Below, piece after piece: positions 1,390-47,753 of a stretch of 64,000 bases of DNA. The position numbers and the translations under genes are program-made. Every line of letters begins with the position of its first letter. Within the stretch, counting starts at the first letter, position 1. Origin of the DNA: Escherichia phage P479; sequence record MW269952.1. One strand, 5' to 3'. A model generated the notes under the pieces. That model had not been told where the DNA came from and made no database searches. It saw nothing but the letters and a program-made list of their open reading frames with translations.

Positions 1390-1917
1390 ATGAAATTTTT
1401 AACTCCCATTTATCTAACCTTAATGCACGCCTTCGCTGAACGCGCCATTGAACGCTTAGATTCAGACCAATATACCTGGTATGAACCCGCTTCAAGAATG
1501 CAAGAGTTTGGTACTCTGAGACTTGACGGTGGAAGACAAACAGGTAAAACAAGTGCCATTGCACAGTTTGCTGCGGATTGGGTTTCCAAAGGTAATGATG
1601 TGATTGTTATGTCGAGTTCTTCGCATCGCTCACGAGAAATCTGTAATATAATAAAGCGGGTTTCTAAGGCACAACCACATCTTAATGTTGAACGACCTGG
1701 ATTCGTTGTCTATGATACTGTACGCAGTTTCCTTGATGAAGATAATTTCCATAAGTACCGTGGATTGCGTTTTACGCGTCTTTTAATCATTATTGAAGAA
1801 CCTATTCGCCTCCCTGCAATGGATAAGTTCTATGAAGCTTATCAGGTAATGATGAATAAATTTATGTGTCAAGGTGATAAGCCTTTGCCACTGTTCTTTG
1901 TGATAGGAATGCAATGA
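1390..1917 (+). CDS. Hypothetical P-loop NTPase-like protein
   Basis: 175 aa; Walker-A-like GGRQTGKTS and Walker-B-like LLIIIEEP; first of five overlapping ORFs. Confidence 0.45.
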   Translation: MKFLTPIYLTLMHAFAERAIERLDSDQYTWYEPASRMQEFGTLRLDGGRQTGKTSAIAQFAADWVSKGNDVIVMSSSSHRSREICNIIKRVSKAQPHLNVERPGFVVYDTVRSFLDEDNFHKYRGLRFTRLLIIIEEPIRLPAMDKFYEAYQVMMNKFMCQGDKPLPLFFVIGMQ

Positions 1918-2210
1918 TGACTGATGAAGAACTTTTTGAGTTCTGTTATTTCTCACGTAAGGTCCGAAGAGAGGACCTTACTACAAATTTTGAATATGCT
2001 TATTTCTATCCATTAGAATATGTATTCATGTCAGGGCCCTTTAAGGGCTCTCGTTTTAGATGTCATGCTCCAAGTATCCGATTAATGAAACAGGTTCCTT
2101 ACTTTACTCTCGAGTTCATCTCTGGGCCTTGTAAGGGTATTATTACTCGTAGTCTCTTGACTTATGACCAAGAGATTCATATGATTTCTGATTGGAAAAA
2201 ATATGTCTAA
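1914..2210 (+). CDS. Hypothetical protein
   Basis: 98 aa; ATGA overlap with upstream stop; internal repeat SGPFKGSRF / SGPCKGIITRS. Confidence 0.4.
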   Translation: MMTDEELFEFCYFSRKVRREDLTTNFEYAYFYPLEYVFMSGPFKGSRFRCHAPSIRLMKQVPYFTLEFISGPCKGIITRSLLTYDQEIHMISDWKKYV

Positions 2211-2417
2211 ATTGACTATTGAAGGTTCTGACGAAGCTCTGAAAAGATTTGTTGAATGGTTTAATGGACCAGGTGAACAAGACTTTCTGGAAGTCTGGGA
2301 TGGCGGTCGGTGGAATGGTAAAGAAATGATTTACCCGACTACCTATATCTCCGTGCAAGGTTGGACTGAAGGCCTTCGTTTGGTAGAATATGATATCGCA
2401 ACTGGCGAGGAAGTGAA

Positions 2418-2421
<4 letters not shown>
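2203..2421 (+). CDS. Hypothetical protein
   Basis: 72 aa; overlaps neighbours. Confidence 0.4.
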
Positions 2422-3001
<580 letters not shown>

Positions 3002-3045
3002 TGTACAAGCAGGTTGAAATGAGTTATGATTATCCCATCAAACAA
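3002..3045 (+). promoter_or_regulatory. T4-type early promoter (PeSL-like)
   Basis: TGTACA 3002-3007, 17-bp spacer, TATGAT 3025-3030, TATCCCATCAA leader, AAGGAG Shine-Dalgarno before ATG 3058. Confidence 0.55.
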
Positions 3046-3057
3046 AAGGAGATAATC

Positions 3058-3516
3058 ATGACTACTATCGATTCAAGTGTTTACATTCGCCGCAATAAAC
3101 TTCGTCGCATTTTTGAAACGGAGTTCCTCAAAATTAATAATGCTATCAACAAGGCTTGTAAAGAAGCAGGCCTTGAGGCATTCTTCATTAAGTACAGTCC
3201 GCACCTGTTGGACCGTGCAATCCAACGTGAAATTGATGAACAATATGTTTTTGACTTGTTTGGAAAAATCACACCACATGTAAAAGAAATCGTTGAATTC
3301 CTGGAGATGAAACCACTCCCGGAAGTTGAAGCACAAATTGACCCGAATGTGAACTATCGTCCACTTCGTCTGGAAATCACAGACAAGAACCTATGGTTAG
3401 GAATGACAGTTAACCCAGCTCTTCCTGGGAAGTCTCCGACCATGTGTTGTCGTATGGCGTTTGTTAACTCTAATCGTCTGGAAGGAAAAATTAGCACAAA
3501 AGTGATTTATATCTAA
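3058..3516 (+). CDS. regB: RegB sequence-specific endoribonuclease
   Basis: 152 aa; VYIRRNKLRR..HLLDRAIQREIDE..RLEITD..NLWLG..CRMA motifs match T4 RegB. Confidence 0.9.
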   Translation: MTTIDSSVYIRRNKLRRIFETEFLKINNAINKACKEAGLEAFFIKYSPHLLDRAIQREIDEQYVFDLFGKITPHVKEIVEFLEMKPLPEVEAQIDPNVNYRPLRLEITDKNLWLGMTVNPALPGKSPTMCCRMAFVNSNRLEGKISTKVIYI

Positions 3517-3526
3517 TGGGGAATTC

Positions 3527-4069
3527 ATGAAAAAAGTAATCGCCACCTTACTATTGACAGTTAGTATGTCTGCCCATAGCGTAGAGCCTACTTTCAGTAA
3601 TGAACAAATGGGGAACCTCCAGTATGCTTATGCGTTTGGAGAACAGTTCCAGAAAAATGGTAAGTACAAAGAAAATCCGCACCAACATAATGGTTTGGGA
3701 TATATCATGGCTGGTTTAGCCTGGCAGGAAAGTTCTGCTGGGATTAATACTGGATTAAATAAAGATAAGCATCATGCATATGGTATATTCCAAAATTATC
3801 TTCCAACCGTGCGCGAACGCGTGAAACAGGTTGGGTGGACAATGACAGATAAAGAAATAATCAAGATGATAAGCAAGAGAGAGAACAGTACACGCTGGGC
3901 TTATATTGAGCTTTCATACTGGTTGAATATTCATAAGGGGGATATAAGGAAAACACTATCATCATATAACGCAGGGTGGAATGTGAAAGCTGGTAATACG
4001 TATGCTTCACAGGTCCTAGAAAAAGCTAACTACTTAAAATCACGAGGCCTATTAAAAACGGTGGATTAA
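3527..4069 (+). CDS. Secreted lytic-transglycosylase-like protein (SLT fold)
   Basis: 180 aa; N-terminal signal peptide; ES...AYGIFQ motif typical of SLT domains; lies next to regB. Confidence 0.5.
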   Translation: MKKVIATLLLTVSMSAHSVEPTFSNEQMGNLQYAYAFGEQFQKNGKYKENPHQHNGLGYIMAGLAWQESSAGINTGLNKDKHHAYGIFQNYLPTVRERVKQVGWTMTDKEIIKMISKRENSTRWAYIELSYWLNIHKGDIRKTLSSYNAGWNVKAGNTYASQVLEKANYLKSRGLLKTVD

Positions 4070-4071
4070 AA

Positions 4072-4431
4072 ATGGTAAGAGTTATCACTTTAGCCATAGG
4101 GTTAGTATTCAGCATGGGAGGAATAGCTTCAGTACAGAGCGACGACAACAACAGCATCATAGAATATGCAACGAGGACGGCTAAAGATTATTGTGCAGCA
4201 AGCAATGTGGATTGTATAATCCAGTTCAGTGCCAAGCTCACCGCAGCCTATAAAGATGGTCAAAATGATGTTGAACATACGCTTTTGAAAAAGAATGTAT
4301 TATCCAACAAATATGAAAAGAAATTATTTGAAATGGATTGCATTCTATCAAGTGCAAAATACAAGGCGGCCTGCACCAGTATGGTTGACAGGTTAGTGGA
4401 TTCATATAATAGAGGATTGAACTCTAAATGA
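4072..4431 (+). CDS. Hypothetical secreted protein
   Basis: 119 aa; hydrophobic N-terminus, several Cys. Confidence 0.4.
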   Translation: MVRVITLAIGLVFSMGGIASVQSDDNNSIIEYATRTAKDYCAASNVDCIIQFSAKLTAAYKDGQNDVEHTLLKKNVLSNKYEKKLFEMDCILSSAKYKAACTSMVDRLVDSYNRGLNSK

Positions 4432-4907
4432 TTACCCAGTATATTAAGGGCGATATCGTCGCCCTCTTTCTTCAAGGCAATATTATTGCACATGGTTGCA
4501 ACTGCTTTCACACAATGGGTTCCGGTGTAGCTGGACAGTTGGCGAAGGCTTATCCAAAAGTTTTAGAAATAGATAAAACCACTACTGAATACGGTTCTCG
4601 TGATAAATTAGGCGATATGTCTATTGTTTTTAAACATAAGCCTACAGGTTTTGGCATGTGCTATAACTTGTATACGCAATACGAACCAGGCCCTAATCTT
4701 GATTATGGTGCTTTAGTAAATTGTATGATAGAATTAAATCTACAAGCAGAAACCCTTTTGTTTAAACCGGTAATTTATATTCCTCGTATTGGTTGTGGTA
4801 TTGCAGGTGGAGATTGGGATAAGGTATCTCAATTAATTGATATGTTTACTCCTGATATTGATTTAATAGTGGTGGATTATGAAAGCACATTACCCGCATC
4901 CGTTTGA
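4428..4907 (+). CDS. Macro-domain protein (putative ADP-ribose binding/hydrolase)
   Basis: 159 aa; GDIVALFLQGNIIAHGCNC...MGSGVAGQL...IGCGIAGGDW matches the macro-domain nucleotide-binding signature. Confidence 0.65.
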   Translation: MITQYIKGDIVALFLQGNIIAHGCNCFHTMGSGVAGQLAKAYPKVLEIDKTTTEYGSRDKLGDMSIVFKHKPTGFGMCYNLYTQYEPGPNLDYGALVNCMIELNLQAETLLFKPVIYIPRIGCGIAGGDWDKVSQLIDMFTPDIDLIVVDYESTLPASV

Positions 4908-5091
4908 CCCTAAAAACAAAGCGGAAATTATTCGACGCTGGACCGAAACTCGAGTAACCAAATGTCCTATAAAAAGTCAACACAACACTGATAAATGGTA
5001 TATCGGTGAATATGTTGAATATACTTTTATAGATAAAAATAAACGCAAACAGCACGTAGAAGAATATTGCTTAAAGGTGCAATGGTTATGA
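4879..5091 (+). CDS. Hypothetical protein
   Basis: 70 aa; GGTGGA Shine-Dalgarno; overlaps the macro-domain gene 3' end. Confidence 0.3.
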   Translation: MKAHYPHPFDPKNKAEIIRRWTETRVTKCPIKSQHNTDKWYIGEYVEYTFIDKNKRKQHVEEYCLKVQWL

Positions 5092-5294
5092 GCCAAGCCC
5101 GAATTCTTAAAACGGCCAAATGTGAAAAATGTGAATGGCCGGTAATCGCAGCTTTATGCAACGATGAAATGAATTGCGAATATGATTACTGGTGGTACTG
5201 TTCTAATAAAGGATGTTCTAATCATAAGGGTGAAGGTTTTCATTCTGGTTATTGCGAACATCCTAAATTTGTGCGATATGGGGAACCGAAATGA
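5088..5294 (+). CDS. Hypothetical Cys-rich (zinc-binding?) small protein
   Basis: About 68 aa with 10 Cys (CEKCEW, CNDEMNCEYDYWWYC, CSNHKGEGFHSGYCEH); AAGGTG Shine-Dalgarno. Confidence 0.4.
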   Translation: MSQARILKTAKCEKCEWPVIAALCNDEMNCEYDYWWYCSNKGCSNHKGEGFHSGYCEHPKFVRYGEPK

Positions 5295-5476
5295 GTTTAA
5301 GCATTAGTCAGAAAAGTAGATTATTTGAGCTCATCCATGAGCTTTTGGATGAGCATACAGAAGCAAACGCCTTTTATGATGAATACGGTCCAATAGATGC
5401 CGAACATCAGGAAGAATTTGCCAATCGATTTGATGCGAAAGAAAACGAATTAATAGCTTATGTGAATACGCTTTAA
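5291..5476 (+). CDS. Hypothetical acidic protein
   Basis: 61 aa; overlapping start. Confidence 0.35.
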   Translation: MSLSISQKSRLFELIHELLDEHTEANAFYDEYGPIDAEHQEEFANRFDAKENELIAYVNTL

Positions 5477-5485
5477 GAAGGTGAT

Positions 5486-6058
5486 ATGGCGAGTTTAATT
5501 TATCATTACGCAGCAATGAATGCAGGCAAAACAGCTTCATTGCTGACTGCAGCTTATTCCTATAAAGAGCGTGGAATGAGTGTGCTTTTGCTAAAACCTG
5601 TTATTGATAATCGGGACTCGGAAGGCGAAATTAAATCACGCATCGGTATTAGCCAGGAAGCAAACCTGGTAACGGCCGACATGAACCTGTTTGAATTCTA
5701 TAAATGGGCCGAGTCTCAAAAGGATATCCATTGTGTCCTGGTCGATGAAGCTCAATTTTTGTTACCAGAGCAAATTGACCAGTTAGCTCAAGTGGTTGAT
5801 AATTACAATATCCCCGTTATGTGTTACGGGTTAAGAACAGATTTTCGGGGTCAATTATTTCCCGGTTCGGCCAGACTTCTGGCTATTTCGGATAAACTGG
5901 TTGAATTAAAGGGCGTCTGTCATTGCGGCCGGAAAGCAACCATGACCGCTCGAGTAATCGACGGTGCTGCTGTAAAGGACGGCGAGCAAGTATTGGTCGG
6001 TGGGAATGAATCGTACGTATCTTTGTGCAGAAAACATTGGCTCGAATTAACAAGCTGA
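5486..6058 (+). CDS. tk: Thymidine kinase
   Basis: 190 aa; P-loop NAGKTASLL, VDEAQF, C-terminal zinc ribbon CHCG...LCRKH; matches T4 Tk. Confidence 0.95.
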   Translation: MASLIYHYAAMNAGKTASLLTAAYSYKERGMSVLLLKPVIDNRDSEGEIKSRIGISQEANLVTADMNLFEFYKWAESQKDIHCVLVDEAQFLLPEQIDQLAQVVDNYNIPVMCYGLRTDFRGQLFPGSARLLAISDKLVELKGVCHCGRKATMTARVIDGAAVKDGEQVLVGGNESYVSLCRKHWLELTS

Positions 6059-6065
6059 GGTTCAC

Positions 6066-6341
6066 ATGGTATACAAGGTTTGGACGTATATCTCTATTTT
6101 GATATTCCTGGTTTTGGTTTTTGTTCCTATGCAACAGGACCAGGAAAGGTATGAGCGCGAAGTCGAAATCGTTGCAAGTACCTATCACTCGTTCAACAAA
6201 GAGTGCCCCAATAAAAACGGAATAAGCCTGCAACAAGCATACTATTTGTCAACGATTACCAGCCCAAAACAACGGGTCTGGGTTGAACGTAATTTTGCAG
6301 GTTTATTTTCAGAGTACTGCTTTAATTTTAAACGTCTATAA
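6066..6341 (+). CDS. Hypothetical membrane protein
   Basis: 91 aa; N-terminal transmembrane helix; GAGG Shine-Dalgarno. Confidence 0.4.
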   Translation: MVYKVWTYISILIFLVLVFVPMQQDQERYEREVEIVASTYHSFNKECPNKNGISLQQAYYLSTITSPKQRVWVERNFAGLFSEYCFNFKRL

Positions 6342-6344
6342 ATA
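6337..6344 (+). promoter_or_regulatory. T4 late promoter (TATAAATA)
   Basis: Exact TATAAATA about 70 bp upstream of the rI start. Confidence 0.45.
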
Positions 6345-6413
6345 CAGTTACTAACTAGTATTCCGCTATGTTAAGGCTGCAAAGCGTAATCATGACCAAC
6401 AATAGGAGTCCTT

Positions 6414-6707
6414 ATGGACCTTATTCGAGGACTTTCATTAAGTCTAATAATCCTGGGCTGTTTAGGCCCAAATCTGTCCTCTGCAACAGAGGGGAAGTTT
6501 ACCCAATATGCAGATAGTGCGATGAAGATTTATTCGCAATTCAAAGAACCAAGCGTGCACCAATCCGAACAGTTCTGGGCGTTTATCAAGACTGAATGGA
6601 ACAACAAAAGCCAATGCGAAACTGAAATTACCTGCAAAAGCGATGGTAAAGCTGCGGCGAGAGAGTACGCTAAATTAATGAAGGTAAAATTGGAAGATGA
6701 AATTTGA
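6414..6707 (+). CDS. rI: Lysis-inhibition regulator membrane protein RI
   Basis: 97 aa; N-terminal signal-anchor; SEQFWAFIKT...C...AREYAKLMKVKLE resembles T4 RI C-terminal domain. Confidence 0.7.
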   Translation: MDLIRGLSLSLIILGCLGPNLSSATEGKFTQYADSAMKIYSQFKEPSVHQSEQFWAFIKTEWNNKSQCETEITCKSDGKAAAREYAKLMKVKLEDEI

Positions 6708-7080
6708 TGATTTCGTAACGGGTCGTGGGTCTGAGGTGGATTCATATATTGGGTGGTTGTTAGTCTCTTTGGCTTATTTTAAGTCCGCCCATCTTGAAAC
6801 CAAAAGTTACGCCCGCCATAAAGCTTATGATTTCTACTTCACAGAAATCCAAGGTCCACTCGACCAGTTCAGTGAGCAATGGTTAGGTTACAGCGGGAAA
6901 CAATACAAAGCTGCATTACCGTCCGCCTCGGACTTGCCGAAAGATACAATTTTGTTTTTAGATGAAATGATTAAAAGCTCGGAAAGAGTCTATAAAGTTG
7001 TACCCAAGGCTATTCAATCGACTCTGGACGATATCGTTGGAGTTTTCTTTCAGACTAAGTATCTGTTAACATTAGAGTAA
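6697..7080 (+). CDS. Hypothetical protein
   Basis: 127 aa; overlaps rI stop. Confidence 0.4.
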   Translation: MKFDDFVTGRGSEVDSYIGWLLVSLAYFKSAHLETKSYARHKAYDFYFTEIQGPLDQFSEQWLGYSGKQYKAALPSASDLPKDTILFLDEMIKSSERVYKVVPKAIQSTLDDIVGVFFQTKYLLTLE

Positions 7081-46533: not shown

Positions 46534-47094
46534 ATGAACATCATCAAATCTGATACCGAACCCAACCAGTTAAAATTTAGTGAAATGGAGATAGCTTCAT
46601 TATTTGAATGCCGCACATCAAAAGTCGATAAGACCTTGCATTCAAACGTTAACTCAATCATCAAGTCAAGGTTATCTGTACCTGATACAGTCTTGTATCG
46701 TGGGGTTACCCAGCAAGAGATTGATTTGTTAGATGAAGCAAAAGAATCAATGCAACCTTTTGAATTTGGAAGGATAACCTCCTTTACAGAAGACTATGGT
46801 ATTGCCAGGGATTTTGCTGCAATGGAATATGTGTCAAGGACTATCATCAGATTGAATCATACAAAAGCTTTTTGTTACCATGATGCGATGCGCAAAATCG
46901 CGCTTGATGTTCCACTGGAATTCTTCAATACAGCCTCTGGTTCCAAACAGGCAGCAACGTTAAGACGTGAAGAATACATGGACATGATTGATTCTGAGCT
47001 TGAATGGTTTGTTCCAGTTGACCAGAAATTCGTGGTGGTTGATGCTGGATTTGTTGGTGATTATTATGTTCTTGACTGTGTACAAGAGCAATAA
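46534..47094 (+). CDS. modB: Mono-ADP-ribosyltransferase, ModB-like (R-S-E class)
   Basis: 186 aa; LYRG, SFTEDYGIARDFA and ELEW fit the R, S-x-S, E-x-E triad; position matches T4 modB. Confidence 0.5.
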   Translation: MNIIKSDTEPNQLKFSEMEIASLFECRTSKVDKTLHSNVNSIIKSRLSVPDTVLYRGVTQQEIDLLDEAKESMQPFEFGRITSFTEDYGIARDFAAMEYVSRTIIRLNHTKAFCYHDAMRKIALDVPLEFFNTASGSKQAATLRREEYMDMIDSELEWFVPVDQKFVVVDAGFVGDYYVLDCVQEQ

Positions 47095-47138
47095 GACACG
47101 TTAAGATGTTCCTATCAACTACTGATGAGGATAATAAA

Positions 47139-47753
47139 ATGCTGTACGCAAGTCACCAATTAGCAGAGTACATCAATGCAGTTAAATGTGAATATTTTCG
47201 TGAAAATACCCAGATTGAAATTGATGAAATTTACTCTGAGTTGGAACAGAGTACACTCTGGCAGTGCATGGAAAATAAGCCAGACACTATCCAGGAAACT
47301 TTGAACAAAATTATTCGTAAGAATTTGACTTCTGTTGTGCCTGGTAAGTTATATCGCGGGATTTCTAAGAAAACTTTGGCATATCTTGAAACCGTAGGAT
47401 GTGTTGGTGCTACGATTGAGTTTGACCGTGTAATGAGTTTCTCCAAAGATTTCAGTGTTGCGCGTAACTTTGCTTCCTTTAGCTTCTATGGAACCAAAAA
47501 TATTTTCTGTATTAATGATGCACCATTCGCATTTGATTATCAGGAAGCGATTTTTAAAATGATTTGTGCGGCACCTCCTGAAGAGTTCAACGGACTATAT
47601 CCTGAAATAACTCGTTCTTCAAACTTGCAATTAGTAAATGATGAAGATGAGATGATGTTCCCTGCGGGAACTACGCTACGCGTGGACTCTATTGAGAGCA
47701 TTTATAGATGGGAAGACTATAAATTATGGAATCTTTCCGTTCTTTCTTACTGA
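47139..47753 (+). CDS. modA: Mono-ADP-ribosyltransferase, ModA-like (R-S-E class)
   Basis: 204 aa from ATG 47139; LYRG, SFSKDFSVARNFA and EDEMMF; paralogue of the upstream gene. Confidence 0.5.
   Translation: MLYASHQLAEYINAVKCEYFRENTQIEIDEIYSELEQSTLWQCMENKPDTIQETLNKIIRKNLTSVVPGKLYRGISKKTLAYLETVGCVGATIEFDRVMSFSKDFSVARNFASFSFYGTKNIFCINDAPFAFDYQEAIFKMICAAPPEEFNGLYPEITRSSNLQLVNDEDEMMFPAGTTLRVDSIESIYRWEDYKLWNLSVLSY

Follow-up and report, generated by a model that had tools for sequence, protein, structure and literature searches.

The open reading frame between vs and tk.3 in the analyzed stretch of Escherichia phage P479 DNA (64 kb, hereafter called the window) encodes a macrodomain of the ALC1-like class, which comprises TARG1, DarG, Poa1p, and SCO6735. 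It is the Gaprivervirus (SP18-type) ortholog of the T4 gene tk.4/adfM and codes for a stand-alone ALC1-like macrodomain. The protein is probably an ADP-ribose–thymidine DNA glycohydrolase, which would counter DarT2 via a mechanism dependent on Gln and Asn and free of a catalytic lysine. The gene is not a new one, as it is already annotated in the nearest relative and known in T4. The present analysis itself covers the identification and classification of the macrodomain, its orthology and synteny, and the make-up of its active site; the need for the gene under DarTG2 was taken from T4 genetics published in a preprint, and the cleavage of thymidine-linked ADP-ribose from a Gln-type relative.

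Macrodomain assignment and genomic context of tk.4

The window protein matched the Pfam family Macro (PF01661) with 33.2 bits (E=5.4e-8, profile positions 2–117 of 118), above the curated gathering score of 22 bits, and PHROG 335 with an E-value of 9e-71. It is encoded by the sole macrodomain ORF in the window. An AlphaFold2 model calculated with 64 homologs as input (mean pLDDT 93.5, pTM 0.88) displayed the macro fold of three alpha/beta layers, in which the ADP-ribose cleft is lined by two loops rich in Gly. A macro-domain protein had been proposed by the sequence-only reading on the basis of four motifs, all of which were found in the order stated (G8-D-I-V11, N18-I-I-A-H-G-C-N25, G31-S-G-V-A-G36, and G122-C-G-I-A-G-G128), and the proposal was confirmed by the HMM search suggested there and agrees with the predicted fold. 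Sequence searches of the PDB retrieved BT1257, yeast Poa1p, SCO6735, M. tuberculosis DarG, and human TARG1. The nearest neighbors in structure and sequence are ALC1-like proteins and not MacroD, viral, PARG, or macroH2A macrodomains, with identities within the class of 20–28% over about 150 columns. With a pI of 4.9 and a net charge of about −6, the window protein is acidic. In the AlphaFold2 model, pLDDT values fall below 50 for the four terminal residues, and the extra C-terminal residues (..STLPASV) are predicted to be disordered.

Across the 4 kb around the gene, the identity to Escherichia phage 212 and to Shigella phage SP18 (Tevenvirinae, Gaprivervirus) amounts to 98.8–99.0%. The RefSeq record of SP18 lists this ORF (98.8% nucleotide identity) as gene tk.4 with the product "phosphatase," in the order vs.3-regB-vs.1-vs-tk.4-tk.3-(Zn-binding ORF)-tk.2-tk. 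The order regB-vs.1-vs-tk.4-tk.3...tk is common to the window, SP18, and T4, so that the locus, earlier described as an accessory island, is a conserved syntenic block. Pfam searches identified RegB, DUF7202 (tk.3), Phage_zn_bind, DUF7438 (tk.2), thymidine kinase, and the rI antiholin among the neighbors, together with a weak SLT match in vs.1. The product of vs, the valyl-tRNA synthetase modifier (119 amino acids), showed no Pfam match; in a T4 transposon study, no gene was more strongly depleted in minimal medium than vs (bioRxiv 10.1101/2025.11.20.689424). The Cys-rich ORF between tk.3 and tk.2 (68 amino acids) is designated "hypothetical" in SP18, and the T4 annotation has tk.3 and tk.2 adjacent with no gene between them.

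T4 Tk.4 (NP_049723), whose record carries the note "contains A1pp phosphatase motif," is encoded at the same position, between vs and tk.3, and resembles the window protein over its full length, with 57% identity over 155 amino acids in an ungapped alignment. The remark of the sequence-only reading that no macro-domain gene was known in T4 itself is therefore wrong. Both proteins consist of a single domain (155 and 159 amino acids in T4 and the window, respectively) and share N25 and Q84 of the active site. They differ in 43% of the residues, among them the second Gly-rich loop, which reads GAGIGKGNW in T4, whereas GCGIAGGDW in the window is the family consensus, and in four additional C-terminal residues of the window protein, whose codons overlap tk.3. 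The overlap between tk.4 and tk.3 amounts to 29 nt in the window compared to 4 nt in T4. The 4-nt overlap of vs and tk.4 is likewise annotated in SP18 and T4, and a GAGGA motif resembling a Shine-Dalgarno sequence is located 11 nt upstream of tk.4. The ATGA overlap suggests translational coupling of vs and tk.4 within a co-directional run of early genes. A scan of positions 1500–7000 for promoter and terminator consensus sequences yielded 16 promoter-like sites versus 15.5 expected from shuffled sequence. Since such sites are no more common than in shuffled sequence, no dedicated promoter can be claimed for tk.4.

Table 1. Features of the tk.4 locus and the ModA/ModB-like genes (positions in the window)
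Feature	Position	Strand	Basis	Remarks
vs	4072-4431	+		
tk.4/adfM CDS	4428..4907 (stop codon included)	+	ORF list	ATG start; 159 amino acids; single macrodomain
ATGA overlap, tk.4 start codon/vs stop codon	4428..4431	+	Coordinates and sequence	
Terminator-like hairpin within tk.4	4447-4465	+		
Asn25 codon	4500..4502	+	MAFFT alignment	Corresponds to DarG N22, SCO6735 N27, PhiKZ gp104 N23 (active-site Asn)
Gly-rich loop 1, G31-S-G-V-A-G36	4518..4535	+	Sequence	Macrodomain GxG loop of the ADP-ribose cleft
Gln84 codon	4677..4679	+	Profile alignment and MAFFT	Column of the catalytic Lys (DarG K80, TARG1 K84); corresponds to SCO6735 Gln85
Gly-rich loop 2, G122-C-G-I-A-G-G128	4791..4811	+	Profile alignment and MAFFT	Diphosphate-binding loop
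29-nt overlap, tk.4 3' end/tk.3 start	4879..4907	+	SP18 annotation	tk.3 = 4879-5091, DUF7202 (Pfam)
Cys-rich ORF between tk.3 and tk.2	5088-5294	+	Phage_zn_bind (PF23895), E=1.4e-29	
Two tandem ModA/ModB-like genes	46534-47094 and 47106-47753	+	PHROG 832, E=3e-28 and 1e-42	Correspond to SP18 modB and modA

The 5' part of the tk.4 ORF contains a hairpin resembling a terminator, AGGGCGAU-AUC-GUCGCCCU followed by CUUUCUUC, that is, a GC-rich stem of 8 bp and then a U-rich tract. It sits 20 nt past the start codon of tk.4, a short way beyond the vs stop codon. For the local fold, a free energy of −17.3 kcal/mol (z=−2.4) was obtained, and the stem is built from minor codons (GGC 0.19, GTC 0.14, GCC 0.14, CTC 0.05). 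The hairpin recurs at this position in T4 and Dhakavirus ESCO10 as well as in Krischvirus Ec_Makalu_003, whose depositors entered a "terminator" for the site, and is lost in Klebsiella phage Roth66. As no compensatory double changes were found in it among the compared phages, selection on the RNA is no more than suggested for this element, a candidate attenuator after vs.

Relatives of the window protein were detected with tblastn in 2751 of 50,697 phage records, among them T-even-like, Felixounavirus-like, and Vequintavirus-like phages as well as phages of Vibrio and Pseudomonas. Their labels vary between phosphatase, macro domain protein, Poa1p-like, and O-acetyl-ADP-ribose deacetylase. In a published survey, 41% of myoviruses carried a macrodomain (PMC9503650). 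No darT gene was found beside a stand-alone homolog on a bacterial chromosome (Pelagimonas, P0104). This says nothing on function, although it agrees with a family of free-standing hydrolases rather than partners of toxin–antitoxin pairs.

Active site and relation to characterized macrodomains

Sequences of reference macrodomains, recovered from the PDB alignments and the publication on PhiKZ gp104, were aligned with MAFFT, complemented by a profile alignment to TARG1; conservation was assessed in a family set of 121 sequences with identities down to about 40%. Q84, N80, Y82, and D49 are present in all 121 sequences, and N25, H22, G23, and C26 in all of the 119 that cover these columns. G33 and A35 of the first Gly-rich loop are invariant in the family, and G31 and G33 in the eight reference macrodomains. 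Toward the C-terminus, the family alignment A1 shows no variation at P119, G122, G124, and W130, and the same residues occur in all sequences of the 121-sequence set covering these positions. The column of the catalytic lysine separates the reference proteins: it is occupied by Lys in DarG (K80), TARG1 (K84), and PhiKZ gp104, and by Gln in the window protein, T4 Tk.4, BT1257, and SCO6735. The latter four also have the H-x-C-N and N-x-x-x-Q motifs in common. In human TARG1/OARD1 (PDB 4J5S), Lys84 forms a catalytic dyad with Asp125, whereas the window protein carries Gln84 and, in the Asp125 column, Ala126. That the AdfM of T-even phages has no counterpart of the DarG lysine and is similar to SCO6735 of the Gln type was not found stated in the literature consulted.

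The Gln-type proteins SCO6735 (Streptomyces coelicolor, PDB 5E3B) and BT1257 (Bacteroides thetaiotaomicron, PDB 2FG1/2AFC) are only 25–28% identical to the window protein; Q84 and N25 align with Q85 and N27 of SCO6735. On single-stranded DNA modified by DarT, SCO6735 cleaves off thymidine-linked ADP-ribose more rapidly than DarG or TARG1 do; it can rescue E. coli from DarT and shows no activity toward guanine-linked ADP-ribose (PMC9411070). Exchange of the active-site Asn lowers or abolishes activity in SCO6735 (N27S, abolished, as with Q85A; PMC9411070) and in the AdfM of PhiKZ (N23A, reduced; PMC13309987). The SCO6735 authors propose that Gln85 serves to place the distal ribose, while the thymine receives its proton from a water molecule bound to the protein backbone (PMC9411070). 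The subclass of SCO6735 and BT1257 is further characterized by a mobile loop that exceeds that of DarG and TARG1 by five residues and carries Lys89/Lys94 (PMC9411070). In our alignment, an insertion of 5–6 residues in BT1257 and SCO6735 has no counterpart in the window protein or in T4 Tk.4. Because the longer loop is absent, the Tk.4 family was not placed in the SCO6735/BT1257 subclass but only likened to it in the way it would work. Additional differences are Val25 of SCO6735, which corresponds to Gly23 in the window protein, and the nature of the genes, since SCO6735 is a basic protein encoded by a chromosomal stress gene and the window protein an acidic one encoded by a phage.

DarG (T. 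aquaticus, PDB 5M31/5M3E; M. tuberculosis, PDB 5M3I) harbors the catalytic Lys80, replaced by Gln84 in the window protein, and a C-terminal DarT-binding domain, which the window protein with its single domain does not have. The scores for DarG models were low. With the PADLOC model, the window protein reached 27.6 bits (positions 4–144 of 329) compared to 132.9 bits for PhiKZ gp104, and with the NCBIfam model antitoxin_DarG 28.2 bits against a cut-off of 250. An adjacent darT is also lacking, the neighboring genes being vs and tk.3. An orphan antitoxin derived from DarG, as implied by the name AdfM, was ruled out on account of the missing catalytic lysine and C-terminal domain and the low DarG scores. 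The name AdfM was also given, independently of the T4 work, to gp104 of PhiKZ (Cell Reports 2026, PMC13309987), which in vitro strips the ADP-ribose attached by DarT2 off a TNTC oligonucleotide (PMC13309987). PhiKZ gp104 is close to DarG (E=9e-25 to the M. tuberculosis protein), and its equation with the window protein was ruled out, as BLASTP aligned the two only over 23 residues (E=0.001). Judged by sequence, the name AdfM covers two macrodomain subfamilies, the Gln-type T4 Tk.4 and the DarG-like, Lys-type PhiKZ gp104. Relatives of the latter were found in only 276 phage records, so that the Tk.4 type is about ten times more common in sequenced phages (2751 vs. 276 records). Yeast Poa1p (PDB 6LFQ-6LFU), an ADP-ribose-1''-phosphate phosphatase, is strongly similar to the window protein only over the N-terminal part of about 75 residues, is longer (180 amino acids), and acts on a small molecule for which a link to the T4 phenotype is not known.

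Proposed function and alternative explanations

The function of the T4 ortholog was approached genetically in a recent preprint (bioRxiv 10.1101/2025.11.20.689424). In a T4 transposon library on a darTG2 host, tk.4 was the single significant gene, and a clean tk.4 knockout was sensitized to DarTG2. The gene was renamed adfM (anti-DarT factor Macrodomain), and removal of ADP-ribose from DNA was proposed. The phenotype agrees with the observation that T4 devoid of both adfA and adfN (gene 30.3) is still resistant to DarTG2 (PMC11825919). Of the two T4 studies, one used M9-glucose at 30 °C and the other sub-MIC chloramphenicol. The T2 ortholog was found as a protein in infected cells (bioRxiv 10.64898/2026.06.19.733364). 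In the CmdTAC paper, macrodomains appear in the reference list only, with no link to tk.4. A role in countering host systems that use ADP-ribosylation, one of the two suggested by the sequence-only reading, thus gains support for DarTG2 from the T4 ortholog, and the plating test on DarTG hosts suggested there has in effect already been published for that ortholog.

Based on the orthology to T4 Tk.4, a probable function in countering DarT2 was assigned to the window allele, and we infer that it shares the activity of the T4 protein and acts enzymatically. The macrodomain would be produced early in infection and bind the ADP-ribose that host DarT2 attaches to thymidine N3 in single-stranded TNTC motifs of replicating DNA. 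Hydrolysis of the bond between ribose and thymine would release free ADP-ribose and restore replicable DNA, by which the phage would escape the DarTG2 toxin–antitoxin defense. Catalysis would follow the scheme proposed for SCO6735 and not that of DarG and TARG1: Gln84, held by Asn25, would position both the distal ribose and the transition state, the protein backbone would assist in activating a water molecule, and no catalytic lysine would be involved. The removal of thymidine-linked ADP-ribose has been described as the unifying activity of ALC1-like macrodomains (PMC9411070). Several properties of the window protein count against a hydrolase acting on DNA. It has neither the catalytic Lys of DarG and TARG1 nor the Asp of TARG1, it does not possess the mobile loop longer by 5–6 residues that has been tied to efficient DNA handling (PMC9411070), and it is only 57% identical to the T4 protein. 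Its acidity, which differs from the basic SCO6735, was also considered as an argument against DNA binding but was dropped, because PhiKZ gp104, a proven DNA–ADP-ribose hydrolase, is equally acidic. SCO6735 and TARG1 additionally act on Glu/Asp-linked ADP-ribose in proteins (PMC9411070) and on uracil-linked ADP-ribose in RNA (PMC13036486); there may therefore be substrates besides DNA, and DNA may not be the main one.

Other explanations of the macrodomain differ in the substrate or in the mode of action. It is unlikely that DarT2 or another ADP-ribosylating toxin is countered by stoichiometric binding of the toxin, or via a different nucleic-acid substrate such as RNA with uracil-linked ADP-ribose. 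The catalytically dead Q85A variant of SCO6735 still inhibits DarT in vitro (PMC9411070), which is in line with binding, but the window protein is a macrodomain alone and has no counterpart of the C-terminal domain by which DarG binds DarT, and the invariance of the active-site residues across the 121 homologs argues for catalysis. The variant with RNA as the substrate is compatible with the finding that DarG, like TARG1 and SCO6735, removes uracil-linked ADP-ribose from RNA (PMC13036486), but a bacterial defense that ADP-ribosylates uracil in RNA was not found in the literature consulted. A hydrolase of small molecules appears very improbable. Such an ADP-ribose-1''-phosphate phosphatase of the Poa1p type or O-acetyl-ADP-ribose deacetylase would clear by-products of RNA repair or of sirtuins, in agreement with the database label "phosphatase" and the similarity to Poa1p in sequence and fold. 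However, the "phosphatase" labels go back to homology transfer and cite no assay, the NCBIfam model of the O-acetyl-ADP-ribose deacetylase gave 12.9 bits against a cut-off of 291, and a metabolic clean-up leaves the specific DarTG2 phenotype of the T4 knockout unexplained. To our knowledge, RNA repair in T4, carried out by polynucleotide kinase/phosphatase and RNA ligase, yields no ADP-ribose-1''-phosphate, which also counts against such a role.

The least probable of these explanations is the removal of ADP-ribose from proteins, either of the marks set by the phage enzymes Alt, ModA, and ModB or of Glu/Asp-linked marks set by a host defense enzyme. The activity of SCO6735 and TARG1 on Glu/Asp-linked protein ADP-ribose speaks for it, as do the two ModA/ModB homologs in the same window (Table 1), which the sequence-only reading had correctly reported. 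In direct competition, however, SCO6735 prefers DNA over protein (PMC9411070). The distance of about 42 kb between tk.4 and modA/modB gives no indication of linkage, and no phenotype ties tk.4 to marks made by the phage. Alt, ModA, and ModB modify arginine. Arginine-linked ADP-ribose was not found as a substrate of the class in the hydrolase literature, in which thymine/uracil N3 linkages and Glu/Asp esters are reported (PMC9411070, PMC13036486). Since the linkages differ, the erasure of ModA/ModB marks is unlikely, and the other suggested role of the macrodomain, the editing of phage-made ADP-ribosylation, found no support.

Implications for T-even-like phages

The gene carries little weight as a discovery, because the macrodomain note in the reference record of the T4 ortholog is years old and the anti-DarTG2 role was put forward in a preprint in 2025. 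The assignment of this role is reasonably transferable to SP18-like phages and bears on the choice of phages for therapy where E. coli or Shigella strains possess DarTG2. The Gln-type nature of the AdfM of T-even phages matters for the design of catalytic mutants and for the use of the name AdfM. Since the catalytic lysine of DarG is absent, a catalytically dead AdfM of T-even phages cannot validly be designed after DarG mutants like K80A, and Q84A or N25A should serve as controls for the Tk.4 type instead.

A broader view, which we hold tentatively and with slightly less than even confidence, is that the Tk.4-type AdfM of T-even-like phages is not a captured DarG but represents a separate and much more widespread ALC1-like phage lineage, which would work with a lysine-free Gln84/Asn25 mechanism like SCO6735 but without the extended loop clamping the DNA. 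The Tk.4 type might accept a broader set of substrates as well, for example, uracil-ADP-ribose RNA or Glu/Asp-linked protein marks, and might thereby confer protection against ADP-ribosylating defenses besides DarTG2. If the proposed lineage is real, phages would have recruited two mechanistically different macrodomains against DarT2, both of which now bear the same name.
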